From Methanococcoides methylutens (lineage in GTDB: Archaea; Halobacteriota; Methanosarcinia; Methanosarcinales; Methanosarcinaceae): a stretch of DNA of 32,000 bases. A program made the translations under genes and the position numbers. Numbering within the stretch: the first letter of the stretch is position 1; each line of letters opens with the position of its first letter. The DNA is taken from NCBI RefSeq assembly GCF_000765475.1, contig NZ_JRHO01000014.1:61574-93573 (forward strand). Reading direction: 5' to 3'. Shown here piece after piece: positions 13,145-31,985 of the stretch. The notes under the pieces were generated by a model that saw only the letters and a list, made by a program, of their open reading frames with translations, was not told the DNA's origin and made no database searches.

Positions 13145-14329
13145 ATGTCAAAGAAAGTAGTACTTGCTTATTCCGGTGGATTGGACACATCCATCTGTAT
13201 CCCCCTCCTCAAAGAAGAATACGGATACGACGAGGTCATAACCGTAGCAGTCGATGTGGGACAGCCAAAGGAAGATGTCGCACAGGCAGAAGAGAAGGCA
13301 AAGAAGATCAGTGACCTTCATTTCACCCTTGATGTTCGCGAGGAGTTCGTGAACGATTACATTTTCCCTTTAATAAGAGCCAATGGTGATTATGAAGGCT
13401 ATGTTATGGGAACCTCCATTGCACGCCCGCTTATTGCCAAAAAGGTCGTCGAGATCGCAGAACAGGAAGGCGCTGTTGCACTTGCACACGGTTGTACCGG
13501 TAAAGGAAACGACCAGCTTCGTTTCGAGGCTGTGTTCAGGCTCACTGATATGGATGTCATCGCACCTATGAGAGAGATGAACCTGACCCGAGAATGGGAG
13601 ATCGAATACGCAAAGGAACACGGTATTCCAGTAGGTGTCACCACTGCAAAGCCATGGAGCGTTGACGAGAACATCTGGAGCAGAAGCATCGAGGGCGGAA
13701 AGCTCGAAGACCCTGGATACATCCCACCTGAGGAGATCTACAAGTGGACAGCTTCACCTGAAGATGCACCTGATGCACAGACCATCGTGATCGGTTTCGA
13801 GAACGGTGTGCCAGTGTCACTTGATGGTGAGAAGATGGACGGTGTTGAGCTCATTGAAAAGATGAACGTCATTGCAGGCACCCACGGTGTCGGACGTACT
13901 GACATGATCGAAGACCGTGTCCTCGGACTTAAAGCACGTGAAAACTACGAGCACCCTGCAGCAACCGTACTCCTTGCAGCACACAAAGACCTTGAAAAAC
14001 TGGTCCTCACCCGCTCTGAACTCAAGTTCAAGGCAATGGTAGACGAACAGTGGTCCGAGCTTGCATACTACGGTCTTGTGGACGAACCACTCTACGATGA
14101 CCTGAATGCATTCATTGACAAGACACAGACACGTGTAAACGGTACAGTCACCATGAAACTGTACAAGGGAAGCCTCACAATTCTTGCAAGGACATCCCCG
14201 GCAGCACTCTACTCAGAAGAACTTGTGTCCTTTGATGGAACAAGCATCGACCAGAAGGACGCCGAAGGATTTGCAAAATATCACGGATTCCAGGCACGCC
14301 TGTTCAGGAAATTCGTTGATAAGAACTAA
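13145..14329 (+). CDS. argG: Argininosuccinate synthase
   Basis: [16 protein letters not shown] (N-type ATP pyrophosphatase P-loop), [14 protein letters not shown], and [16 protein letters not shown] prefer the ATG at 13145, which has GGAG about 9 nt upstream. The track start at 13070 lies inside the carB 3' end. Confidence 0.95.
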
Positions 14330-14340
14330 AATTAATTACT

Positions 14341-14379
14341 CGTATGCGGTTGTCGCATACGGGCTTCTTTTTTCTTTTG
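14341..14379 (+). terminator. Hairpin plus T-tract terminator downstream of argG
   Basis: An 8-bp perfect stem (CGTATGCG at 14341-14348 pairing with CGCATACG at 14354-14361, loop GTTGT) is followed by GGCTTCTTTTTTCTTTTG. Oligo-T tracts are the known archaeal termination signal. Confidence 0.55.
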
Positions 14380-14742
14380 TTGGTCTTGATTTGGATTGTT
14401 CTAAATTTATTACCCGGCTACTCATACTGTTTAAACGCATATTTTAAAACATACCCCAATTCTTAGGGTATGTTGCACTGCACTAACCCAAAAAAGTTAG
14501 AATCACTTCCCCCGCACAATCTTGCGGGGATATAGGTAAGTTGAATTTTTTGTACGAGATTGTGTGAATTGTTTGCACAACCTGTCTGTAAACATCTAAG
14601 AGAATCTAGCTATACTATTTTGGATGCTAATCAATTACAAATAAAAATATTATATATTATTATGTTATTACTGGTAATGTAAACTCTAATAACAAATTAT
14701 TTTTCTCGTTAAAATTTTGTGGTTATATTTGAAGGTAATATT

Positions 14743-15708
14743 ATGAACAAAATTGACATAGTTCCAGCTTGCAAAGGGATAATAACTAATTTAGACTTAT
14801 TAAAATCAGAAGGTACACTTCAATTTACTACGAGTCTTAGTGACTTAAAAGCTGGAGGAATCATTTTTGAAGTAAGTGGACCAGAGTTCAGCTTCATATT
14901 TGGTTCAAACGAAAAAGGACTTTTTGTAAAAAGAAACGAAGTTTTTTCAATATTGACTTATGATGATATAAAAGAAACCTCAGTAGAACCAATGATTTTT
15001 CTGACTTGGTCCTACAATAAAATTTCATTATATTTTTGTAGTGAAATTAAACATAAAAAAGCAGAAGCTCCAACAAAACCCTGTTCTCCTCCTCCATCAT
15101 TAATTAAATGGGCACGTAAACAAAATTTACTCCCAATGGTTGAATATGAAAGTGAGGAAAAATTACGCGAAAAAGTATATTCATGTTTGTTATCAATACA
15201 AGACAAAATTGATGAATATGGTGCAATAAATCCTTTTTGGGACATTAGTTATTCTGGTAAGAGTATTGTTAGCAGAACACCTAAAAAAGAAACAGATGTT
15301 CAACCTGTAATCAGCCTTTTGCTGTCGGATCAAATGCTAATGGCTGGAATAGAAGTTATACCTGAATATCAAACGGGCAGAGGTAATTTGGATTTTATGT
15401 TTATGGGGAATGTAAAAGACAATGGTATAACTAAAATATGTGCAGAATTTAAAAATGCTCATTCAAAAGATTTGTTTCATGGGCTTGAAAATCAACTTCC
15501 CCTCTATATGAAAAATCGTGAATGCAATTATGGGGCATATTGTGTCTTAAACTATAAAGGGGAATGGTTTACTAAACCTGACACATTTGAAAATAAATTG
15601 GATGTGGAACTCTCTATTCATCAAAGCAAATCTATCAATCCATTAGTCCATAACGGTATAAGGTGCTTTATATTTTCATTATCAAAAAAGAAAACTGCTA
15701 GTAAGTGA
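14743..15708 (+). CDS. Hypothetical protein with a C-terminal RecB/Cas4-like PD-(D/E)XK nuclease motif set and an unrecognised N-terminal domain
   Basis: It is the only long ORF in the AT-rich island. Motifs occur in canonical order: GNLDFMF (Asp, nt 15391-15393), ICAEFK (ExK, nt 15445-15453) and ENQLPLYM (QxxxY, nt 15493-15507). The N-terminal ~110 aa looks beta-rich and is followed by a Pro-rich linker (APTKPCSPPPS). I prefer the ATG at 14743 over the GTG at 14719. Confidence 0.55.
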   Translation: MNKIDIVPACKGIITNLDLLKSEGTLQFTTSLSDLKAGGIIFEVSGPEFSFIFGSNEKGLFVKRNEVFSILTYDDIKETSVEPMIFLTWSYNKISLYFCSEIKHKKAEAPTKPCSPPPSLIKWARKQNLLPMVEYESEEKLREKVYSCLLSIQDKIDEYGAINPFWDISYSGKSIVSRTPKKETDVQPVISLLLSDQMLMAGIEVIPEYQTGRGNLDFMFMGNVKDNGITKICAEFKNAHSKDLFHGLENQLPLYMKNRECNYGAYCVLNYKGEWFTKPDTFENKLDVELSIHQSKSINPLVHNGIRCFIFSLSKKKTASK

Positions 15709-15819
15709 AATTATTATATAACATCCGAAACTATTTTGTAACCTAGACAAACTATTATACCCATATATGTTTTAATCCTTTTAGCAATAGGAATAGATAG
15801 GCGATAATTTTTGCATAAA

Positions 15820-16149
15820 TTAAGAAACGTCTATCTTTTTCCCCCATCCATCTAATCTCTCCCTAACATGAGCATTGAGAGTAAACGTGTTCTCACTTCT
15901 GACATTTTGCTTCATATAATGCAACGTACCTTTTGAGAAACCCATCTTCTTCCATTCAGTGTAGGATATATCAATGATCTTCTTCCTCAAATCATCCGAA
16001 TCATACCTTTCAATCTTATAGGAGGGCTTAACAAACTCAATCGTTTTCCTCTTCCTAACAAGATGATGACTCAACTCTCTCGCCTTAACCAACAGGATAG
16101 ATCCCCAGGAACTATTCTTTTCCCTGTACTCAACCTTCCCGTTAACCAC
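15820..16149 (-). CDS. Hypothetical small protein, possibly a 5'-truncated gene remnant, with a putative C-terminal DNA-binding-like segment
   Basis: The ORF starts at GTG. The frame stays open 23 more codons upstream (IIFDKNVSSIKTRFAQYYVYEDD) to a TGA ending near 16221, with no in-frame ATG. The C-terminal ISYTEWKKMGFSKGTLHYMKQNV...LNAHVRERL looks helix-turn-helix-like, which is my inference only. AT-rich composition, convergent with the nuclease ORF. Confidence 0.35.
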   Translation of the reverse strand: MVNGKVEYREKNSSWGSILLVKARELSHHLVRKRKTIEFVKPSYKIERYDSDDLRKKIIDISYTEWKKMGFSKGTLHYMKQNVRSENTFTLNAHVRERLDGWGKKIDVS

Positions 16150-21844: not shown

Positions 21845-22672
21845 ATGATCTTGGGGTATATTATATTTACAGATCTTGATGGCACTTTAATAGACCATGA
21901 TACTTATTCTTATGAAGCAGCAAGGCCTGCGCTTAACCTGCTAAAACAAAAAGATGTACCTCTAATTTTCTGTACCAGCAAAACCCGTGCAGAGATCGAA
22001 GTCTATGTTGAGGAACTGGACTGTCGCCATCCCTTCATATCAGAGAATGGAGGAGGCATCTTCATACCGAAAGGATATTTTGATATTGATCTGAAGTTTG
22101 ATCACAGGATCGGGGACTATAATGTCATAGAACTTGGAACCAACTATTCCAATCTAAAAGATGCCCTCGTGGAGATTAGCAAGAGCGCCGGTATTGAGAT
22201 AATCAATTTCGCAAACATGACCACTGAAGAAGTAAGTGAGGATACAGGACTCGATATTCACTCTGCAGGACTTGCAAAGCTACGCGAGTATGACGAGGTC
22301 TTCCGGATAATTGATGAAACTGAAGAAAAAGCCTCCCTGATGATGGAACTTATAAGATCTGCAGGGTACAACCACACCAGAGGTGGCAGATACTGGCATA
22401 TTATCGGGAACAACGATAAAGGCAAAGCTGTCAGGATGCTAAGTGACATCTACAGAAAGCAGTTCACTGATATCACTACAGTAGGTCTGGGCGATAGCCT
22501 GAATGACCTGCCAATGCTGGGATCTGTGGATATACCTGTTCTTGTACAAAAGCCGGGCAGCTTACACGACCCATCAATAACCGATCCGAAAATAAAGCGT
22601 GTAAAGGGTATCGGACCCATAGGGTGGAACAATGCAGTCAGCGAGATAATAGAGAAGGGGTCTGAAATTTAA
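21845..22672 (+). CDS. gpgP: HAD-IIB phosphatase of the mannosyl/glucosyl-3-phosphoglycerate phosphatase family (MpgP/YedP/GpgP)
   Basis: IIFTDLDGTLIDHDTYSYEAARPALNLLKQKDVPLIFCTSKTRAEI...FISENGGGIF...KGKAV...GLGDSLNDLPML closely follows the MpgP/YedP pattern (SDLDGTLL...VPVILCSSKT...ENGA). GGAGGA lies directly upstream of the ATG. Confidence 0.78.
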   Translation: MILGYIIFTDLDGTLIDHDTYSYEAARPALNLLKQKDVPLIFCTSKTRAEIEVYVEELDCRHPFISENGGGIFIPKGYFDIDLKFDHRIGDYNVIELGTNYSNLKDALVEISKSAGIEIINFANMTTEEVSEDTGLDIHSAGLAKLREYDEVFRIIDETEEKASLMMELIRSAGYNHTRGGRYWHIIGNNDKGKAVRMLSDIYRKQFTDITTVGLGDSLNDLPMLGSVDIPVLVQKPGSLHDPSITDPKIKRVKGIGPIGWNNAVSEIIEKGSEI

Positions 22673-22699
22673 TTTTAAGAACATAAAGGGGTACATGGA

Positions 22700-23230
22700 A
22701 TGATACGAATTGAGAATATGATATCAAGAGCCTTTTTGATAGGGATTATCAAGATGGTGGACAAGAATGGGGTCCAGAATGCACTGGAATGGTTACGTGA
22801 GATCGGGGAAGAATTAGCTGAGATCGAAGGACCTGGATTTGAAGGTGCTCGTGAAGATGACATTAACTATTTGCCGGTCTGTCCGTTTTCAAATACTCTC
22901 CTTGATTTTATAGCGATATATGGAGAGAGACCATCACAATTCGTAGAACTTGTAAACCTTTCCAACAAGCAAATGATGGAGGCAGAAGATGGATGGGAAT
23001 ATCCGGCACTGACAACTGTCACAGGCATACTTCATCACAGCTACATTAAAAAACGAGGATTGTTGGCAGGTGTTGAACTTCTTAACGTGGGATCAAGATG
23101 TCCCCGTACCAACAATATAGTCTACAACGAAAAAGCCCTTGAAAAAGCAAATATGACAAAAGAAGATGTGGATAAGTATCTTGAAAAAGCATATTACGTT
23201 TGTAAGATCAATTACCTTAAAAAGGAGTGA
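22700..23230 (+). CDS. Hypothetical protein (176 aa) between gpgP and the GH15-like gene
   Basis: Same strand, starting 27 nt after gpgP. Its stop overlaps the next gene's start (GTGA at 23227-23230). I recognise no family confidently. A weak resemblance to V4R or methanogen regulatory-domain proteins is not enough for a call. Confidence 0.5.
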   Translation: MIRIENMISRAFLIGIIKMVDKNGVQNALEWLREIGEELAEIEGPGFEGAREDDINYLPVCPFSNTLLDFIAIYGERPSQFVELVNLSNKQMMEAEDGWEYPALTTVTGILHHSYIKKRGLLAGVELLNVGSRCPRTNNIVYNEKALEKANMTKEDVDKYLEKAYYVCKINYLKKE

Positions 23231-24459
23231 ATTCTTTGAACCTGATCGAAGCTGAAAAACTCTACGAGAACAGCGTAAAGATCCTGAAGAACAACCAGCA
23301 TGAAAAAGGAGGATTTTATGCAAGTCCGCCAGGAACACGATATCCTTTTATCTACCCTCGAGACCACTCGGTGGCAATACTTGGCTGCATTGATGCCGAA
23401 ATGCTGGACGAGGCCAGAAGGGGTCTTGAATTTGTCCTGAACTCCCAAAAGCCCCTGGGAGAATTTTCCCAGAGATATGATGTTGACGGAAATGACGCCA
23501 GCTACAAGGACCTGCAGATCGATGGGAACGGACTGGTCCTTTTTGCAATGGGAAAATATTTCGAAGCAACGGGCGGACTCTTCTTTGAATCGATGGCCGA
23601 CAGGACTTTTGTGGAAAAGCACTGGGAAACTGTCAAGAAAGCCGTTGAGTTCATACTGATGAACAAGAACGAAGAGGTCGACCTGATCCATACCGTGAAC
23701 AGCATCCACGAATATCCCGCCTACGAGCATGGTTTTGAGATCTATGCCAACTCTGCCTGTTGTGCAGGGATCCTCGCAGCAGTAAAAATGGGAGAAGCTC
23801 TTGGTGAAGATGTCGCCAACTGGAAAGCTGAGGCTGAAAAGATAAGGGAAGCCATTCTTACACGGATGTATAGCCCGCGTAGGCGCTCATTTATCAAATG
23901 TATCCGTGTAAAAGAGAAAAGCAGCAACCCTATCGGATATGATGCATTCGCCTCAAGCGTCATCGATGTGGATGTTGTGGAATACGCACCTGCATATTTT
24001 GAGCTCATCGATCACCATGACATAAAGAATCGTTATACTGTCAGGAGGATACATGATAGGCTCTGGGACAAAGAGATCGGAGGCTTGAACCGCTATCCGG
24101 AAATGTGGGACAGGAATAACGGAGGATATGGCCCATGGTGCCACTTCACCTGCCAGCTTGCAAACCATTATATTGCTATTGATGACCAGGATATGGCAGA
24201 GATGTATATGGGCTGGGTAGTGGATATGGCACACAACTACCTCCTGCCTGAACATATCTCAACAATTGAAAGGTTTGAGATATGGCATGAAGACTATACC
24301 AACGCAAAGATCCTCAGGGATAGTAAACTCACCATGATCGAGAAAGTGCGTAACCATCCAAAATGGAAAGACGGGATGGCATACGTAACGATACCCCTGA
24401 TATGGCCTCATGCAGAGTATATCAGGACTTACAAGAGCTATATTGAGAAGTTTGGATAA
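23227..24459 (+). CDS. Glycoside hydrolase family 15-like protein (glucoamylase/trehalase-related (alpha/alpha)6 barrel)
   Basis: GH15-like blocks: YPFIYPRDHSVA (YxxxWxRD region), DLQIDGNGLVLFAM (QxDxxG region), GGLNRYPEMWDR, and the C-terminal PLIWPHAEYI (the LxWSHAE motif of GH15). The GTG start is coupled to the upstream ORF; a TTG at 23236 is an alternative start. Confidence 0.72.
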   Translation: MNSLNLIEAEKLYENSVKILKNNQHEKGGFYASPPGTRYPFIYPRDHSVAILGCIDAEMLDEARRGLEFVLNSQKPLGEFSQRYDVDGNDASYKDLQIDGNGLVLFAMGKYFEATGGLFFESMADRTFVEKHWETVKKAVEFILMNKNEEVDLIHTVNSIHEYPAYEHGFEIYANSACCAGILAAVKMGEALGEDVANWKAEAEKIREAILTRMYSPRRRSFIKCIRVKEKSSNPIGYDAFASSVIDVDVVEYAPAYFELIDHHDIKNRYTVRRIHDRLWDKEIGGLNRYPEMWDRNNGGYGPWCHFTCQLANHYIAIDDQDMAEMYMGWVVDMAHNYLLPEHISTIERFEIWHEDYTNAKILRDSKLTMIEKVRNHPKWKDGMAYVTIPLIWPHAEYIRTYKSYIEKFG

Positions 24460-24601: not shown

Positions 24602-25372
24602 TCAGAGCGGGAGACAGACCTTCCTTTGTACGGAACTAACATGATCGATAGCAACATCGATCCCATATGCAAGTGTCATGTTCTCTTTTGTTATTACTTC
24701 TTCAGCAGTCCCCTGAGCTATGAAATTATTCTCAAGCATTATGGCAACATTTTTTGAACCTATAAAAGCATGATCCGGGAAATGTGTGCTCATTATTACA
24801 GAAGTCCCCTGAGAAGAAAGTTTGTCAATAAGGTTCAAAACACGTACCTGGTTCCCAAAATCCAGATGGGATGTCGGTTCATCCAGGAGCAATATTTCCG
24901 GTTCCTGAGCCAGTGCCCTTGCGATCAAAGCCAGTTGCTTTTCACCACCACTTATTTCTGTGACAGAACTATCCATCAGATGAGAAATGCCTACTTTAAC
25001 GATGGCATTTTCCGCGATCTTAAGATCCTTTTCGCCCGGAGAGGAGAAAAAAGGAAGATGCGGTGCTCTGCCAAGCATTACAAAATCCAGAATGGAAAAG
25101 GGAAATACCGACTGATCTGCCTGTGGGACATAGCCTATCTTTTTAGCTATCTCTGTTCTGCTCATCGAAGAGACATCCCTGCCGTCAATATATGCATTCC
25201 CATTACTCAAATTCAGCACGTTGCCAAGGCATTTGATCAGGGTTGATTTACCTATCCCGTTCGGACCAAGTATGCATAAGGTTTCACCTTTATTTAAAGA
25301 AAAAGATATGTTCTCAAATACATTCTTCTTCCCGTCATACGAATATGAAGCATTGTTCACTCTTAAGATCAT
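24602..25372 (-). CDS. ABC transporter ATP-binding protein, iron-siderophore/cobalamin (FecE/BtuD) type
   Basis: Walker A GPNGIGKST, signature ISGGEKQ, Walker B ILLLDEPTSHLD. The ATG at 25372 overlaps the permease stop (ATGA at 25372-25369); the track start at 25378 is a TTG. Confidence 0.9.
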   Translation of the reverse strand: MILRVNNASYSYDGKKNVFENISFSLNKGETLCILGPNGIGKSTLIKCLGNVLNLSNGNAYIDGRDVSSMSRTEIAKKIGYVPQADQSVFPFSILDFVMLGRAPHLPFFSSPGEKDLKIAENAIVKVGISHLMDSSVTEISGGEKQLALIARALAQEPEILLLDEPTSHLDFGNQVRVLNLIDKLSSQGTSVIMSTHFPDHAFIGSKNVAIMLENNFIAQGTAEEVITKENMTLAYGIDVAIDHVSSVQRKVCLPL

Positions 25373-26478
25373 GACCAACCAACCTTCTTTCTTTGTAAAA
25401 GATAAGCAAAAAACGGAGCTCCTATTAGTGCCGTAAGAACTCCCAGGGGAATCTCTATACTCATTAAACTCCTTGCCAGATCGTCCACCACCAAAAGGAA
25501 GGATGCACCAAGGAAAATTGACATTGGCAAAAGCTTTTTGTGCTCAGGCCCGACGATCATTCTTGCAATATGAGGCACAACAAGACCAACCCATCCAATG
25601 ATCCCGCTTATACTGACTGCGGAAGTGGTGATCAGAGTAGCACAAATTACAACCAATATTGTCATTTTCCGGGTATCTATTCCCAATGATTTTGCCTCGT
25701 CCTCTCCTAAAGAAAGTATATTGATGCGCCATCCGATTAGAACTAAGATAAGCATAGAGACCAGCATCCCGGGTGCTACATAGACAAGATCATCAAACCG
25801 GACAGAGGACAGGCTTCCCATAAGCCAGAATACCATCTCAGGAAGCTTGTCGTATGGATCTGCAACATATTTTACCAGGGATGTCAAAGCAGTGAAAACC
25901 GCACCTACAATAATACCTGAAAGCACCAGGACCAATGTAACCGTTGCCCTGCAGAATCTGCTCAGACCGTAGGACAGAAAAGCTGCAGATAAACCAAAAG
26001 AAAACGCCATTAATTGGATCATGATTATGTTCTCACTTATCAGGATACCAAAACAAGCGCCAAACCCGGCACCTGCTGCCACACCCAGAATATGGGGAGA
26101 AACCAGCGGATTGCGGAAAAGCCCCTGGAAAGAAGCTCCAGATACTGATAATCCAGCACCTACCAGCATGGCGGCAATGATCCTTGGAAGACGGACCTGA
26201 AATATTACAGTATCCACATTTGAAGAGCTTGCAGGATCCACCGACACAAAAAGCGAAACGATCAGGGATACCAAATGGGAAACAAGGCTGCTCATTATAG
26301 TAAGCGGAGGAATCGAATACCTCCCAATGAAAAAGGAGAATCCAAAAAGAAAGACCATAAGGAAAAATACAAGGAGAATCTGATTATTACTACCAGACAG
26401 CCTGTGAATGATCCACCATAACCTTGAACTTTTTTTTATTCCAGTATCAGACACCATATCAAACCCATATCCTAACAT
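25369..26478 (-). CDS. ABC transporter permease, FecCD/BtuC family
   Basis: A polytopic hydrophobic protein with FecCD-family blocks: RLPRIIAAMLVGAGLSVSGASFQGLFRNPLVSPHILGV, LSLGEDEAKSLGI, GIIGWVGLVVPHIARMIVG, and GVLTALIGAPFFAYLL. Confidence 0.9.
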   Translation of the reverse strand: MLGYGFDMVSDTGIKKSSRLWWIIHRLSGSNNQILLVFFLMVFLFGFSFFIGRYSIPPLTIMSSLVSHLVSLIVSLFVSVDPASSSNVDTVIFQVRLPRIIAAMLVGAGLSVSGASFQGLFRNPLVSPHILGVAAGAGFGACFGILISENIIMIQLMAFSFGLSAAFLSYGLSRFCRATVTLVLVLSGIIVGAVFTALTSLVKYVADPYDKLPEMVFWLMGSLSSVRFDDLVYVAPGMLVSMLILVLIGWRINILSLGEDEAKSLGIDTRKMTILVVICATLITTSAVSISGIIGWVGLVVPHIARMIVGPEHKKLLPMSIFLGASFLLVVDDLARSLMSIEIPLGVLTALIGAPFFAYLLQRKKVGWS

Positions 26479-26508
26479 GCATACATGATAATTTTGTTGA
26501 ATCAGTTA

Positions 26509-28251
26509 TTACTTAGATGAAGCACCGTAAAAAGACCTGTTCTGCCTTGAAGGATCAAAGGAAAAACCATAGAACTTTTCATAAAACCGGTTTGCTTCCT
26601 TTTCAATGTCAAAATCAAAGATATCCGGATGCAACTTGTTTGCGATATACATCAGTCCCAATATCCATCTCGGACTTCCGAAATCCCAGGATGGCCGAAG
26701 GCCGTATATCTGTCTGCTCTTTACAGCATCTGCCGAAAGACCATGCTTTTCACAATAATCATATGAATCGGAAACAGGGGTTGAAAGAAAACCGGATATG
26801 AATATAAATTCAGGATTCATTTCGGCAAATTCTTCCTGAGAAATATTAACTCCGGGTTTACCCTCTCTCTTGATCAGCTGATTTACACTTTCCCCGCCGG
26901 CAGCTTCAACAAGATTGTTCTCAATACGCTCTCCGTTGAGCGCAAAAAGAGGATATCCCATAGAATAATAAACCCGTGGCCTTCCAGTGTTTTTTACTCC
27001 CGACCTGATAAGGTCCAGTTTCTCCTTCATATAATCCACAAGTTCCATTCCTTCCCTTTTTTTGTCTGCAAGGGCGGCAAAATGCTCAATTACATCAAAA
27101 TAGGAATCAAGGTTCTGTGAACTGGTATGAAGCTCCTCCAAATATCCGGTTTCCATGACATTTAGCCATATTTCGGCAAGTTTCCTGTCGTCTCTTATCC
27201 CAAGGCAGATCAGAATCGCATGGATCATCTCCAGAGCCCGGGTAAGCCTGTATCCTCCCATAAAACCCGGTTCATGATGATTTTTTTTGCTGATGTAGCC
27301 CCTGAAAAGATCCGGGACGGAGCATTCACATTTTCCTTCAGGCAGGTATGCTATTGTGCGTGAACCCATGGGACCGAAGAACTCCCTTTGAAAAATCACC
27401 TGACCACATTCGGGACATACCGTATTCAAATATTCGGTACCCGGAGAATTAAACAAATAGACATAAGTAAGATCTTGCCTTAATTTGTCACACAGAATTT
27501 CAGCGTCCCTGATCGTTGGTTCGATCTGCGGGACTGCATCCCCAAAAGGCACAAACCTCATAATCTGGAACGGTATATCCTTTGAAAGAGAAAAAACATA
27601 TTTAGCAGTATTTATAACCTCATCTTCTGAACCTTTGATGTAGATGGTAGAAACTTCAACATGAACATCACTTTCATTCAATAGTTTCAGATTCCTGAAA
27701 ACAGGTTCTGAGCTTTTGACCCCGCAGGAAATATATCTTTCATCGGAGAAGCCTTTTATTCCGACATTTACAAAATCAATTAACGGGATAAGTTCTTTTA
27801 ATGCGCTTTCTGCAAAATAGCCATTTGTTGAACACCCGATAAACAGGTCGTTTTCCTTAGCCTTTCTGGCAAGGTCCTTAAACGTGAAAAATGAAACGAT
27901 CGGATCGTTAAGACAAAAAACGATCCCGATACAATCTTCCTCAAGAGCTTTTTTTATTACCTGGTCATTACTCATTCCGCCATTCTTTTTACCTGAAACA
28001 AGCCGTGAAGCAATGATCTCTGATACGCAACCCTCACATTTAAAATTGCAGCCAATGGTACACACCTGCAGGAATTTTCCTCGTGGATGAAAATGAAGGA
28101 TCGGAACAGTTTCAATAGAAATTGGCAGCATCGTAAAGTAGTTGCATGGGAATCTCTCAACGATCTTATCGCCCTCAATGGCATACATACGACATTGGCC
28201 ATATTTTCCTTCTGCGATATTGCAACCGATCTCACATATGGTGCATTGCAT
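26509..28251 (-). CDS. Radical SAM enzyme (PflA/AmmeMemoRadiSam-like activase fold) fused to a C-terminal periplasmic-binding-protein type 2-like (SBP C-lobe) domain
   Basis: The CxxxCxxC motif CNFKCEGC lies at nt 28027-28050. Before it come an N-terminal Cys cluster (CTICEIGCNIAEGKYGQC) and PILHFHPRGKFLQVCTIGCN, as in COG1180-type radical SAM proteins. A second Cys4 is present (CPECGQ...CEC). The C-terminal ~180-230 aa (nt ~26557-27249) align by eye with the C-lobe of the operon's SBP. Its start lies 2 nt after the methyltransferase stop. Confidence 0.75.
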   Translation of the reverse strand: MQCTICEIGCNIAEGKYGQCRMYAIEGDKIVERFPCNYFTMLPISIETVPILHFHPRGKFLQVCTIGCNFKCEGCVSEIIASRLVSGKKNGGMSNDQVIKKALEEDCIGIVFCLNDPIVSFFTFKDLARKAKENDLFIGCSTNGYFAESALKELIPLIDFVNVGIKGFSDERYISCGVKSSEPVFRNLKLLNESDVHVEVSTIYIKGSEDEVINTAKYVFSLSKDIPFQIMRFVPFGDAVPQIEPTIRDAEILCDKLRQDLTYVYLFNSPGTEYLNTVCPECGQVIFQREFFGPMGSRTIAYLPEGKCECSVPDLFRGYISKKNHHEPGFMGGYRLTRALEMIHAILICLGIRDDRKLAEIWLNVMETGYLEELHTSSQNLDSYFDVIEHFAALADKKREGMELVDYMKEKLDLIRSGVKNTGRPRVYYSMGYPLFALNGERIENNLVEAAGGESVNQLIKREGKPGVNISQEEFAEMNPEFIFISGFLSTPVSDSYDYCEKHGLSADAVKSRQIYGLRPSWDFGSPRWILGLMYIANKLHPDIFDFDIEKEANRFYEKFYGFSFDPSRQNRSFYGASSK

Positions 28252-28253
28252 AT

Positions 28254-28907
28254 TTATTCCACCTTCCTGAACAGTATCCAGAAACCGGATTCATCTTCTA
28301 TTATCTCATAATGCCCTATTTCGGCAGTTAACAGCGCCTTTTTAAAAGAGTCGAGTTTGGATCGTTCCAATCTTTTTGCGGCAGTTTGGGACCAGTTCTC
28401 ATCCCTTTTTTCCATTTCCCGTGTGATCTTTGACTTCAGTTCAGCTGTTCCGAAGCCACCCCCTATATAGGCTGATCCACCGGGTTTCAGTACCCGGTAT
28501 ATCTGCCTGAAGGCTTCAGGCACATTTTCCCAGAAAAAGAGGGAACCACGACTTACGATCAGCTCAGCAAAGTTATCATCAAAAGGCATGTCATGAACAT
28601 CCCCCAGTACAGGGATCACCTTCTCGTCGAGGTTGCCTGAATCAATCCTTTTCTTTGCTATAGCAACCATTTTTTCAGAGAAATCCATTGCATAGACCTG
28701 ACCAACCATGATCTTGCTAATGGCAATTGCAAGTGATGCGGGACCACTGCCCACATCAATGCAAATCCCACTGTTGATATTGCACCTGTCTATAATCTGC
28801 TCTGAAATAACAGGATATATAGGTGCAAAGACATTGGTCGCAACATCTTCAAACTCTTCGGCATAATCATCATGAAATCGAACTTTATCACTTGATCTGT
28901 CTATCAT
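28254..28907 (-). CDS. Class I SAM-dependent methyltransferase (Methyltransf_11/25-like)
   Basis: Motif I ICIDVGSGPASLA (nt ~28737-28757), post-I acidic AMDFS, VLGDVHDMPFDDNFAELIVS, and LKPGGSAYIGG. AGGTGG lies ~8 nt upstream of the ATG. Confidence 0.8.
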   Translation of the reverse strand: MIDRSSDKVRFHDDYAEEFEDVATNVFAPIYPVISEQIIDRCNINSGICIDVGSGPASLAIAISKIMVGQVYAMDFSEKMVAIAKKRIDSGNLDEKVIPVLGDVHDMPFDDNFAELIVSRGSLFFWENVPEAFRQIYRVLKPGGSAYIGGGFGTAELKSKITREMEKRDENWSQTAAKRLERSKLDSFKKALLTAEIGHYEIIEDESGFWILFRKVE

Positions 28908-28936
28908 TTAATCCACCTTCTGTTTTGTAAAAACCA

Positions 28937-30019
28937 TTAATTGGATTTAGAAGCTGGATTCAATAGTTCATCCAACTCAGTTCCCGACAGTTCATAGTGA
29001 TAGAACTCTGAATAGAATTCCTTAACAAAACCCCTGAGGTCAAGATCGCTGAACTCTTCCGGATACAGCACTTTGGCTGTCCATGGTATACCGATTATCC
29101 TGTTCACTCCCGGTGGCCTGTCAAACCAGCAAAAAGGAGCATCCGGGAATAGATATACCTCATGGTCCTTTACCGCAGTGATATCATGCCAGAGAGGGTC
29201 TTCATATATATTTTCATAGAAGTCACGGTCACCTGTGATGATGACTTCAGGATCCCATTGCAATACCTGTTCGATGGATACCTCTGACCTTCCGTATCCT
29301 ATGTCAAGCGGACATTCTGCTACGTTGATGCCACCACATATTTCGATCAATTGACTGTGGGGAGAGCCCTTAGGATCTGTCAGCAGCCCTTCCGGACCTT
29401 CTGCATAATAGACACGCTTCCTTTCATCTTCAGGTATCTGTGAGACCTTTGTAGTGACAGTGTCAAGTGTTCCTTTATAGAAAGAGATTAATTGCCCTGC
29501 CCGTTCTTCTTCCCCCAGAAGTTCACCCATAAATCGTATTGGTTCTTCATAGGCCGTGGCATCGGTTGTCGATTCAATACCTACAACAGGAATTGTACCA
29601 AACTTTTCCTGTCTTGCATTGATAGTAGAAGTAACATCCCCTCCGCTATTGTAGCCTTCAAAGACAACATCAGGACCGATAGATATAATGGTTTCATAAT
29701 TTCCATCCTGTTTACCAAACCACCCGCCAATCACAGGAACAGCCTGGTACTCTGGTTTCAGATATGTTTCCGATTCCTGTGGCAGAAAATTCCAGCCTGC
29801 CAATTTATCGGGAGCCAGCATGTAAATGAGCATTGTTGCAGGAGGAGAGGTAGCAACTACTTTGTTCACATCGGCTGGAATTTCAACTGTCCTTCCTGCC
29901 ATATCGGTTATCGATATTGTGTTCTGCGCATAAGTTTCTTTTTGATCAACACATGCGCTTGAGCATACCGCAAACAAGACCACACATATCAATAAAATGG
30001 ATCTGAATTTTTTATTCAT
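28937..30019 (-). CDS. ABC transporter substrate-binding (lipo)protein, Fe-siderophore/heme/cobalamin type (periplasmic binding protein type 2)
   Basis: Signal/lipobox-like N-terminus (MNKKFRSILLICVVLFAVCSSAC). GRTVEIPADVNKVVATSPPATMLIYMLAPDKLAGW, DVVF, RVYYAEG, WDPEVIIT and AVKDHEVYLFP are characteristic of FecB/BtuF-like class III SBPs. Confidence 0.85.
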   Translation of the reverse strand: MNKKFRSILLICVVLFAVCSSACVDQKETYAQNTISITDMAGRTVEIPADVNKVVATSPPATMLIYMLAPDKLAGWNFLPQESETYLKPEYQAVPVIGGWFGKQDGNYETIISIGPDVVFEGYNSGGDVTSTINARQEKFGTIPVVGIESTTDATAYEEPIRFMGELLGEEERAGQLISFYKGTLDTVTTKVSQIPEDERKRVYYAEGPEGLLTDPKGSPHSQLIEICGGINVAECPLDIGYGRSEVSIEQVLQWDPEVIITGDRDFYENIYEDPLWHDITAVKDHEVYLFPDAPFCWFDRPPGVNRIIGIPWTAKVLYPEEFSDLDLRGFVKEFYSEFYHYELSGTELDELLNPASKSN

Positions 30020-30070: not shown

Positions 30071-30140
30071 TTGGATGAACATAACGATAGATAAAGTTTT
30101 CTAAATGAGTCGAGATGCTAACAGGACCAAAAAGATTCTC

Positions 30141-30239: not shown

Positions 30240-31985
30240 TTAAATTTTTTTATCTTCCACTATTGGAGATACCAGACTAAAAGTATCTACATCAAAAAGC
30301 CCCATATCCGTAAGCCTTAAAGAGGGAATCACCGGGAGAGCTATGAAAGAGTGGGTTATGAACGGTGCCGGAAGGCTGCAACCGATACTTTTTACTGCCA
30401 TGTGAAGATCGTTCAATCTTTTTTCAACCTCTTCGACCGGAAGAGTGCTCAACAGCCCGGCAAATGGTAGTTCAAGCTTGCCCACCACCTTACCATCGCT
30501 GACAACACATATACCGCCATTCATCTCACGGATGGTATTGGCACACAATGCCATATCCGAATGGTTGTCCCCGGTTACAACAACGTTATGACTGTCATGA
30601 CCTATACTCTGGCCGATAGCACCATTGCTGATACCTATTCCTTTGATAAAGCCAAGACCGATGTTACCATTCCTGCCATGCCTTTCGATTACGACAACAC
30701 TCAAGATATCGTTACCAAGGTCCGGAAGCAGTACACCATTGGTGTCTGAATGAAGTATAACACTTTCTTTTTCCGTAAGGATCAGGTCGGGCAGGACCTT
30801 TATCACTGAAACTCGGTGATCACTGTCGGGACCTGCTGTCAGTTGCAGATCAGACGGCCTGACCTGTGGGAATCGCACCGTATCAAAAACCACATTCGGA
30901 TAGTCATAGGAAGCAGTAAAACCTTCAACAGCCTTTCCTGCAGCATATACCGAATCTATGCTGAAAGTATCAAGGTCGTTAAGTACGACCAGATCGGCCT
31001 TCCTGCCAATTGAAATAGAGCCAACGACATTGTCAAGATGATAGTGCTTTGCGGTATTGATGCTTGCCATGCAGATCGCATCGATAGGGGAAAGTCCCAT
31101 TGCTATAGCTCTCCTGACGATCACATCCATATAGCCTTTCATCAGGTCGGATGGATGCTTGTCATCGGTCACAAAGAAAACGTTCTCAAGGGAAACTCCA
31201 TCCTCAATAAGTCTTGGAAGGAACCTATCAAGGGATTTAGCTGCAGACCCCTCCCTTATCATAAGCTTCATTCCAAGACGCAGTTTCTCCAGTGCCTCTT
31301 CATATTCAATAGATTCGTGGTCCGTAGATATTCCGGCTGCCATATAACCCCATAATTGTTCTCCGGAAATTGCCGGACAGTGACCATCGACCACGAGCCT
31401 GTCCTTAAGTGCAGCCCTTATTATGGACAACTTGTTCTCATCCCCGAACAATACGCCGGGATAGTCCATCATCTCACCAAGGCCAACAACATTCTCGTTA
31501 TCGATCAGCGAATCAATATCATCTGCACTGATGGATGCACCTGCTGTTTCAAAAGTGGTTGCAGGAACACAGGATGAGATTGCTACAAAAGCATTCAAAA
31601 GCAGTGATGACGCTTCTTCAAGCACAAGTTCGATGCCTTTTTTACCAAGGACATTGGCTATCTCATGGGGATCAATCACAACAGATGTTGTACCGTGTTG
31701 CAGAGCAGGTACCGAAAACTGACTCAGGGTAACCATACTTGATTCAAAATGGACATGTCCGTCGACAAGCCCCGGACAGATGTAGCGACCACTTACATCG
31801 ATGAGATGAGTGGCATCTCCTTTAAGGCAGGAAACATCACCGATGCCTACAATGTAACCGTCCTTAACTGCAATGTCCCAGTCCAGAATCTCTTTCGTAT
31901 TAACGTTAACAATACAACCACCAGTAAAGATCGTGTCTGCTTTAACTTTGCCTGTAGCTGCAAATATCCTGTCCTTTATGTCCAT
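30240..31985 (-). CDS. ade: Adenine deaminase (amidohydrolase superfamily)
   Basis: GRYICPGLVDGHVHFESSMVTLSQFSVPALQHGTTSVVIDPHEIANV matches the adenine deaminase metal-binding HxH block, and downstream TDHES and GHDSHN blocks are present. The length of 581 aa is typical. Confidence 0.87.
   Translation of the reverse strand: MDIKDRIFAATGKVKADTIFTGGCIVNVNTKEILDWDIAVKDGYIVGIGDVSCLKGDATHLIDVSGRYICPGLVDGHVHFESSMVTLSQFSVPALQHGTTSVVIDPHEIANVLGKKGIELVLEEASSLLLNAFVAISSCVPATTFETAGASISADDIDSLIDNENVVGLGEMMDYPGVLFGDENKLSIIRAALKDRLVVDGHCPAISGEQLWGYMAAGISTDHESIEYEEALEKLRLGMKLMIREGSAAKSLDRFLPRLIEDGVSLENVFFVTDDKHPSDLMKGYMDVIVRRAIAMGLSPIDAICMASINTAKHYHLDNVVGSISIGRKADLVVLNDLDTFSIDSVYAAGKAVEGFTASYDYPNVVFDTVRFPQVRPSDLQLTAGPDSDHRVSVIKVLPDLILTEKESVILHSDTNGVLLPDLGNDILSVVVIERHGRNGNIGLGFIKGIGISNGAIGQSIGHDSHNVVVTGDNHSDMALCANTIREMNGGICVVSDGKVVGKLELPFAGLLSTLPVEEVEKRLNDLHMAVKSIGCSLPAPFITHSFIALPVIPSLRLTDMGLFDVDTFSLVSPIVEDKKI

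Follow-up and report, generated by a model that had tools for sequence, protein, structure and literature searches.

Why should genes for two enzymes that use S-adenosylmethionine (SAM) lie inside the operon of a metal-chelate importer? The question is raised by a locus of Methanococcoides methylutens on contig NZ_JRHO01000014.1 (the window, i.e. the whole stretch of 32,000 nucleotides (nt) analysed here), where a substrate-binding protein (SBP), a class I SAM-dependent methyltransferase (MT), a radical-SAM (rSAM) protein, a permease and an ATPase of the ATP-binding cassette (ABC) type are encoded one after another. A preliminary description of this DNA had proposed that the imported ligand is chemically modified in the cytoplasm. 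Judged from its sequence, the rSAM protein is a fusion of a radical-SAM barrel with one half of an SBP, a point underplayed in that description, and the fused half-SBP makes a stronger case for cytoplasmic modification of the imported ligand. The reading that we favour, to which we give about an even chance, is that the operon is an uptake-and-processing module of strict anaerobes for a bulky metal chelate, either a metallophore or a metallo-macrocycle. Its five genes are as follows, with Pfam scores that are all above the cut-offs:

28937-30019, minus strand: SBP gene, class III (Peripla_BP_2, 82.8 bits)
28254-28907, minus strand: MT gene (Methyltransf_11, 74.7 bits)
26509-28251, minus strand: rSAM/half-SBP fusion gene (Radical_SAM, 47.3 bits)
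25369-26478, minus strand: FecCD/BtuC-type (type II ABC importer) permease gene (FecCD, 300.4 bits)
24602-25372 (25378 if an upstream TTG is the start), minus strand: ABC ATPase gene (ABC_tran, 112.1 bits)

The fusion protein is cytoplasmic and 580 amino acids (aa) long, with no signal peptide, and is built from the following parts:

27352-28251, minus strand: rSAM catalytic half (aa 1-300), a PflA/AmmeMemoRadiSam-like barrel
28027-28050, minus strand: CX3CX2C (C68/C72/C75), the SAM-binding [4Fe-4S] motif
27238-27273, minus strand: interdomain loop E327-P-G-F-M-G-G-Y-R-L-T-R338, with the invariant pattern E-x-G-x-x-G-G-Y-R-x-x-R
26527-27129, minus strand: half-SBP module (aa ~375-575), a class III SBP reduced to its backbone helix and C-terminal lobe

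The catalytic half belongs to the Radical SAM superfamily (PF04055, 47.3 bits against a cut-off of 29.5), and C68-x3-C72-x2-C75 is invariant in 68 homologs. Further cysteines form an N-terminal motif (C3-x2-C6-x3-C10-x9-C20) and a zinc-ribbon-like motif (C279-x2-C282...C308-x-C310) or stand singly (C107, C176), and in the 68-sequence alignment the cysteine columns of the rSAM half are invariant or nearly so. An AlphaFold2 model of the fusion (pLDDT 90.8, pTM 0.90) places the interdomain loop within a long coil that connects the zinc-ribbon-like element to a helical linker; E327, G329, G332, G333, Y334, R335 and R338 are identical throughout the 68 sequences. The small-G-Y core of this loop loosely resembles a glycyl-radical loop beside a PflA-like barrel. 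In Foldseek searches the N-terminal part of the fusion matched PflA (8fo0/3cb8, E ~1e-9), NifB (E ~1e-7) and MoaA, and the C-terminal part matched 4HN9, 4OVK, 4PAG, Helicobacter pylori CeuE, MolA and YiuA.

The half-SBP module scored 27.2 bits against Pfam Peripla_BP_2, just under the cut-off of 27.5, and is backed by PDB sequence matches (to 9.5e-11) and by Foldseek (to 6e-13). C500 and the motif W522-D-F-G-x-x-x-W529 are invariant within it, the window having WDFGSPRW, of which S526, P527 and R528 are less strictly kept. When the fusion was compared by BLASTP with the operon's own SBP, aa 377-565 aligned on SBP aa 150-344 (26% identity, E 2e-9), and the N-lobe of the SBP was found to be absent from the fusion. 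The fused lobe and the operon SBP share matches to 4PAG, 4OVK, 4HN9, MolA and 2ETV (YiuA being found for the fused lobe via Foldseek), and they therefore belong to the same SBP subfamily. An exhaustive search of 1.8 billion representative proteins, with the linker and half-SBP module as the query, found the module beside a catalytic domain solely in rSAM fusions; the other matches were ordinary or tandem SBPs. Some SBPs of the subfamily (P0228, P0266) bear at the N-terminus a domain that is similar to Oxidored_molyb (sulfite-oxidase-type molybdopterin binding), a hint that other lineages may subject the ligand to redox chemistry outside the cytoplasm.

The preliminary description had not recognised the arrangement as a characterised pathway, and this is borne out by the silence of the searchable literature, the PDB and NCBIfam. 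No solved structure in the PDB spans both halves of the fusion (sequence search and Foldseek), NCBIfam release 20 contains no curated model for the fusion family, to which NCBI gives merely the name 'radical SAM protein', and a full-text literature search returned no paper on the function of the fusion or the operon. The rSAM half also lies outside the characterised families. Its best NCBIfam match is the AmmeMemoRadiSam rSAM (TIGR04337), with 114 bits against a cut-off of 220 in an alignment over aa 1-294, and AMMECR1 or Memo domains had no match in any scanned open reading frame (ORF) of the window. With the glycyl-radical activases it shares the fold alone, scoring 25.2 against 231.75 (TIGR02493, PFLA) and 24.9 against 174.35 (TIGR02494). 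The contrast drawn earlier with the HemN-like ChuW/HutW enzymes likewise stands, as the window enzyme is PflA/AmmeMemoRadiSam-like and has no HemN_C or HemN-family match in Pfam or NCBIfam.

The link between these enzymes and an importer extends well beyond this locus. In a scan of one genome per species, relatives of the fusion were found in 282 species, and their hosts include Methanosarcinales, Methanomicrobiales, Methanococcales, anaerobic methanotrophic archaea (ANME) of group ANME-1, Methanolliviera, Desulfobacterales and Spirochaetota; there are more than 500 homologs, ~50% identical across domains of life. Synteny was examined in 83 loci, 39 of them fully flanked (at least 5 kb on either side of the fusion). 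In 78 of 81 loci the gene directly upstream of the fusion, on the same strand, is the MT gene; of the 39 fully flanked loci, 32 have FecCD within 5 kb and another four have it within ~8 kb. The conserved synteny on which the preliminary description had made its claim depend is thus present, and the pairing is kept far beyond chance across archaeal orders and two bacterial phyla. These gene neighbourhoods show the two predicted cytoplasmic SAM enzymes to be inherited together with such importers. The enclosure of the enzymes by transporter genes, which had also been claimed, holds in some lineages, the window's included; in others the MT-rSAM pair stands at one end of the cassette or is convergent to the permease and ATPase genes. 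The order SBP-MT-rSAM-permease-ATPase is found in Methanosarcinales, ANME-1 and Methanococcus and the order permease-ATPase-SBP-MT-rSAM in Methanoregulaceae, and many Methanoculleus loci have convergent permease and ATPase genes. Enclosure is lineage-specific, but importer linkage is general. Throughout the class A loci (Methanosarcinales, many Methanomicrobiales and Methanolliviera) each of the five proteins shares 40-65% identity with its counterpart in the window, which is unusually high for an SBP, and the cassette can therefore be regarded as one orthologous unit. The SBP orthologs are 50-57% identical in Methanosarcinales and Methanomicrobiales and 65% identical in Methanolliviera.

In a neighbour-joining tree the window protein groups with ANME-1 and Methanolliviera, next to a bacterial clade and not with Methanosarcina, and Methanoculleus genomes have up to three fusion paralogues, tail-to-tail pairs included; tree placement and paralogues together indicate horizontal transfer and duplication. 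In one type of paralogue (L014-L018) the MT is longer, and the two members of this type with long flanks, L015 and L018, have no importer nearby. Short rSAM matches were considered as split variants and rejected, those checked being assembly artefacts or paralogues: L085 is a frameshifted fusion, L086 runs into a contig end, and L084 continues in small ORFs consistent with frameshifts. A true stand-alone rSAM paralogue, 31% identical to the N-terminal half of the fusion, does exist in Desulfobacula. Examples of these arrangements are:

L048 1468-5060, L049 3242-6699, L014 with L035, L015 with L033: Methanoculleus paralogues
L002 534-10519, genes on the same strand; also L020, L022, L024 and L028: Desulfobacula cluster

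The L002 cluster contains an MT, an SBP, FecCD, an ATPase, the stand-alone rSAM and a ~390-aa protein with no Pfam match, and then a cytidine-deaminase-family protein, a 56-aa ORF, an MT, the rSAM fusion and DUF364. Directly downstream of this DUF364 gene in Desulfobacula toluolica, and co-oriented with the MT-rSAM cluster, is a molybdopterin oxidoreductase gene (L002 10723-13494) with an in-frame TGA (…CART*HAPT…), probably coding for selenocysteine.

The partner enzyme is a member of the class I SAM-dependent MTs, with 66.1 bits against Methyltransf_25 in addition to its Methyltransf_11 match, and has the motif I CIDVGSGPA. It is the ortholog of Methanococcus maripaludis MMP1179 and matches PDB 3DLC over its full length (E 2e-61), a SAM-bound structure whose substrate cavity is large (PMC5289526). 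The window MT shares 100% identity with a Methanococcoides methylutens protein, and the preliminary description was right to assume a methanogen. The specific equivalogs UbiE, ArsM and BioC gave 47-51 bits, with cut-offs of 158-263, none of which was reached. ArsM needs additional arsenic-binding cysteines, and ArsM-type arsenic methylation was rejected for the window MT, which has only the cysteines C42 and C49, the latter within SAM motif I, and scores far below the cut-off.

What might such a pair of enzymes act on? The importer itself is of the class III SBP/FecCD/ATPase kind that the preliminary description had named: Peripla_BP_2, FecCD and ABC_tran all exceed their cut-offs within one operon, and the three proteins are shown by these matches to make up a predicted type II (FecCD/BtuCD-type) importer. 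The SBP, whose N-terminus is a hydrophobic, Cys-containing anchor, is shown by the same kind of evidence to be a predicted extracellular protein that is lipid- or membrane-anchored. Its nearest solved relatives are 4PAG (E 2e-54), 4OVK, MolA 3PSA (E 1.7e-24, 90 bits) and YiuA (79 bits). No component of the operon reached the curated equivalog cut-offs for B12, heme, siderophore or F420-0 systems (NCBIfam release 20). The size of the ligand can be judged from two loci of Desulfobacterota, L084 of Desulfosarcina cetonica and L085 on a related contig, where the gene order is ATPase-FecCD-SBP-TonB-dependent receptor-rSAM fusion-MT. The TonB-dependent receptor points to a bulky chelate, too large for porins, and argues against a free oxyanion. 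MolA is among the nearest solved SBPs, yet these two loci carry TonB-dependent receptors, and molybdate/tungstate oxyanion import should need no outer-membrane receptor. A molybdenum/tungsten link was rejected as a conserved association: molybdopterin oxidoreductases seemed enriched among the neighbours but were confined to 3 loci. Of the ligands guessed at in the preliminary description, a metallophore fits best.

In the favoured reading, the imported ligand would be captured by the fusion, with one half of the binding cleft formed by the SBP C-lobe and the other, in place of the absent N-lobe, by the rSAM barrel's open face. SAM would be reductively cleaved at the [4Fe-4S] cluster to give a 5'-deoxyadenosyl radical, which would abstract hydrogen from the bound chelate, and the class I MT would methylate the same molecule before or after the radical step. 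The chelator would in this way be altered or broken, and either the metal would be freed or the scaffold converted to a usable form, so that the pathway would be an oxygen-independent counterpart of siderophore esterases/reductases or heme oxygenases. The core pair is universal and the biosynthesis-like genes (DUF364/DUF4213, an O-methyltransferase (O-MT) and extra MTs) are accessory, which fits the use of a chelate, not its synthesis. A bolder version can be put forward only tentatively, as possible rather than probable: the fusion may be an intracellular 'hybrid SBP' that clamps the chelate over the radical cluster and, with the MT, dismantles the chelator and frees the metal, in an oxygen-independent pathway shared by horizontal transfer among methanogens, ANME archaea and sulfate reducers.

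Several points weigh against the uptake-and-processing reading. The cleft geometry in which the barrel replaces the N-lobe is one that we infer, as is the chemistry of every family member. The nearest rSAM relatives, the PflA-type activases, act on proteins and not on small molecules. When the SBP C-lobe is compared with the fused lobe, 17 of 32 co-conserved columns are identical, mostly core residues, and the conserved polar positions differ systematically. The fusion and the MT remain 48-56% and 40-48% identical to those of the window even beside an SBP of 25-33% identity (bacteria and some archaea), and enzyme and SBP are therefore not tightly co-evolving. Three loci (L015, L018 and L039), and only these, have MT-rSAM with no FecCD importer nearby. 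Homologs of the MT at ~46% identity are also found alone: among three picked by MT similarity alone, one (L089) is in a full cassette and two are solitary, and the dependence of fusion and MT is therefore one-way.

Chelate processing has three rivals, of which biosynthesis followed by re-uptake survives best, although we consider it unlikely. The MT and the fusion, together with DUF364, the O-MT and extra MTs, would build or tailor a secreted SAM-derived metallophore, and the importer would retrieve the metal-loaded form, as in the staphylopine cnt operon and siderophore clusters. DUF4213/DUF364 is the commonest extra neighbour, lying inside the operon in ~12 of 83 loci (Methanomicrobiales, Methanolliviera, Spirochaetota and Desulfobacula), and is followed by additional SAM MTs, including a weakly BchU-like O-MT (32 bits), also present in the M. 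maripaludis locus; there are as many as three extra SAM enzymes per cluster. The azetidine carboxylate moiety is a building block of nicotianamine-type chelators. DUF364 has been associated with metal ABC transporters in a Joint Center for Structural Genomics structure paper (PMC2954201), and the sole characterised DUF364 enzyme cyclises methyl-SAM to azetidine carboxylate (PMC12930334). This azetidine chemistry and its link to nicotianamine raise the possibility of SAM-derived metallophores. However, unlike the universal core pair, the accessory genes occur patchily; no biosynthetic gene beyond the MT and rSAM is present in the window or in most class A loci, two enzymes are few for the synthesis of a chelator, and no exporter is evident among the scanned ORFs of the window. 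An SBP-derived lobe is also more naturally the receptor of a finished, metal-loaded ligand than of a precursor.

Rather more doubtful is the proposal that the ligand is a tetrapyrrole, i.e. that heme, a corrinoid or another metallo-tetrapyrrole (e.g. of the F430 type) is salvaged, remodelled or opened anaerobically, in analogy to ChuW/HutW or cobamide remodelling. The host lineages are cobamide-dependent, and a precedent for an MT and then an rSAM enzyme acting on a metallo-tetrapyrrole is provided by BchM/BchE. The top NCBIfam match of the permease is BtuC (238 bits), the ATPase scores alike against F420-0, heme, corrinoid and FecE ATPase models (~175-184 bits each), among the subfamily models the L085 TonB receptor has its highest score with that of the heme receptors (TonB-hemin, 184 bits), and the accessory O-MT is weakly like BchU, a tetrapyrrole C-methylase. 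All of these scores are far below the curated cut-offs (461 for BtuC and 317 for TonB-hemin), as is that for BtuD (119 bits against 281), and the SBP is much nearer to MolA and YiuA than to BtuF (31 bits against 234) or IsdE (28.6 bits against 298). The L085 receptor stays below the cut-off of every subfamily and has no FRAP/NPNL heme motifs, and the operon thus falls outside the heme importers (IsdE/HmuT). Nor does it belong with the BtuFCD corrinoid importers, all three components being below cut-off. Rfam detected no cobalamin or other riboswitch in 16 bacterial homolog loci, and this, together with an SBP that reaches only 31 bits against BtuF, weakens the case for the corrinoid suggested in the preliminary description. 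The rSAM half, moreover, is not HemN-like.

The weakest rival, which we regard as very improbable, is protein- or cluster-directed radical chemistry, in which the fusion would be an activase, maybe placing a radical on its own GGY loop (in-cis glycyl-radical type), or would mature clusters like NifB with an SBP/nitrogenase-like lobe as scaffold while the importer merely supplies metal: its nearest folds are PflA and NifB, its nearest profile hidden Markov models (HMMs) are of protein-directed activases, the E-x-G-x-x-G-G-Y-R-x-x-R loop, C107, C176 and C500 are invariant, auxiliary clusters could be bound by the two additional Cys motifs, and MMP1176 of M. maripaludis is up under nitrogen limitation, when Nif proteins are induced, but on inspection the loop mismatches the glycyl-radical signature RVxG[FWY], the scanned ORFs of the window include no Gly_radical or PFL-like protein, and the obligate MT partner, the TonB receptor and the accessory DUF364 are left unexplained.

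The expression of the cassette can be considered from the window and from its orthologs. The five minus-strand genes are packed exactly as the preliminary description stated, with gaps of 29 nt, 2 nt and 30 nt and then an ATGA overlap, the permease stop and the ATPase start sharing TCATGA at 25369-25374; such packing is by itself ordinary. Ribosome-binding sites had been said to lie inside the preceding genes, and this is the case for the rSAM gene (AAGGTGG in the 3' end of the MT gene) and the ATPase gene (AAGGTTGG in the permease gene), but the Shine-Dalgarno-like AAGGTGG of the MT gene is in the 29-nt gap and the permease gene has no recognisable Shine-Dalgarno sequence. The sole conserved promoter-like block of the operon is upstream of the SBP gene, all intergenic gaps being 30 nt or less, and two elements can be placed there:

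30087-30102, minus strand: candidate archaeal promoter, B-recognition element (BRE)/TATA-like AGAAAACTTTATCTAT, ~70-85 nt upstream of the SBP start codon
30054-30071, minus strand: inverted repeat AACATATCG-CAATATGTG, candidate operator, just downstream of the TATA-like box

In an alignment with four Methanohalophilus orthologous loci the AGAAAACTTTATCTAT block is invariant or nearly so and the sequence farther upstream diverges, and we infer that the block is a promoter. The inverted repeat has the form AACAT-N8-ATGTK (AACAT-N8-ATGTT in relatives) and is kept in the four Methanohalophilus loci amid diverging sequence, which would suit a candidate operator for a possibly metal-responsive regulator. 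Rfam found no regulatory RNA or riboswitch in the window.

M. maripaludis, Methanosarcina acetivorans and Methanococcoides are genetically manipulable cultured methanogens. The orthologous operon of M. maripaludis is MMP1176-1183, in which MMP1176 is the SBP, MMP1179 the MT and MMP1181 a second SBP, and MMP1180, from its position, is presumably the rSAM fusion; the fusion ortholog of M. acetivorans is Q8THI2. MMP1176 is expressed; under H2 limitation it goes down, as do CbiX and a putative Ni transporter, and under N limitation it goes up (PMC2723118). The MMP1176 gene decays through mutations in laboratory strains, for which the authors tentatively blame iron-replete medium (PMC8479958).

The flanking genes of the window are housekeeping ones (MvhD/ferredoxin-like, GatE, CarAB, ArgG, adenine deaminase and a mannosylglycerate-type cluster). 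Beside the operon, 21845-24459 on the plus strand encodes a mannosyl-3-phosphoglycerate phosphatase (TIGR02461, 262 bits), a 176-aa ORF with no family match and a GH15/MGH1-like hydrolase, and looks like a cluster for turnover of a compatible solute (mannosylglycerate). On the other side, 220 nt upstream of the operon and on the same strand, is an adenine deaminase gene (30240-31985, minus strand; TIGR01178, 583 bits). Adenine is formed when the 5'-deoxyadenosine and S-adenosylhomocysteine that come from SAM enzymes are broken down; linkage of the deaminase gene to the cassette was not seen in other lineages, and the adjacency is probably coincidental. Farther away, GC content falls to 0.32-0.37 at 14001-16000, against ~0.45-0.50 nearby, and this stretch, which contains a 329-aa ORF (14719-15708) with no Pfam match, may be foreign DNA.

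The acquisition of trace metals (Fe, Ni, Co, Mo/W) by strict anaerobes in sulfidic habitats is poorly understood, and how methanogens acquire iron has been broadly reviewed with no mention of chelate-type uptake (PMC8351635). The cassette, found in ~280 species including ANME-1, joins an rSAM architecture outside the PDB and curated models to an MT for which a structure exists (3DLC), and probably marks a new way of using imported metal chelates without oxygen. Once identified, the ligand and the reaction would represent a new class of rSAM reaction and an explanation of oxygen-free metal release from chelates, and possibly a means of influencing how metals are supplied to methane production and to anaerobic methane oxidation.

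Among known systems, the closest analogue at the operon level is ChuW/HutW with heme importers, at the fold level PflA and NifB, and at the sequence level the AmmeMemoRadiSam rSAM. ChuW/HutW/HmuW resemble the window in joining a chelate importer operon to an rSAM enzyme, in using SAM as both radical source and methyl donor, in being oxygen-independent and, on the favoured reading, in serving the use of a metal chelate that has been imported. They are, however, a single HemN-like class C rSAM methyltransferase, whereas the window has a separate class I MT and an SBP lobe on the rSAM, and the substrate of ChuW/HutW is heme, to which the window ligand is not tied. PflA has the same partial TIM-barrel rSAM fold with CX3CX2C near the N-terminus; the window fusion differs in its extra N-terminal and zinc-ribbon-like Cys motifs, in its 250-aa C-terminal half-SBP and in having no glycyl-radical enzyme partner among the scanned ORFs. 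The AmmeMemoRadiSam rSAM, for which a literature search found no characterisation of the family, is the closest sequence family (~30-32% identity, with the HMM over aa 1-294 including the N-terminal Cys motif), but it is without an SBP lobe, and AMMECR1/Memo genes were not found among the scanned window ORFs. NifB also combines an rSAM barrel with a C-terminal domain that holds a ligand or cofactor and uses SAM as methyl donor and radical source, but that domain is NifX there and an SBP lobe here, and here the MT is separate and the context is an importer rather than nif genes. BtuFCD, HmuTUV, FhuDBC, MolABC and CeuE/FecDE are of the same superfamily as the window SBP, permease and ATPase, and the nearest functionally studied SBPs to the window SBP or fused lobe are MolA, YiuA and H. 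pylori CeuE; unlike the window operon, none of the known class III-SBP importers has a cytoplasmic enzyme bearing an SBP lobe. The fusion is a novel enzyme architecture in an otherwise known scheme, that of a chelate importer with a cytoplasmic processing enzyme.

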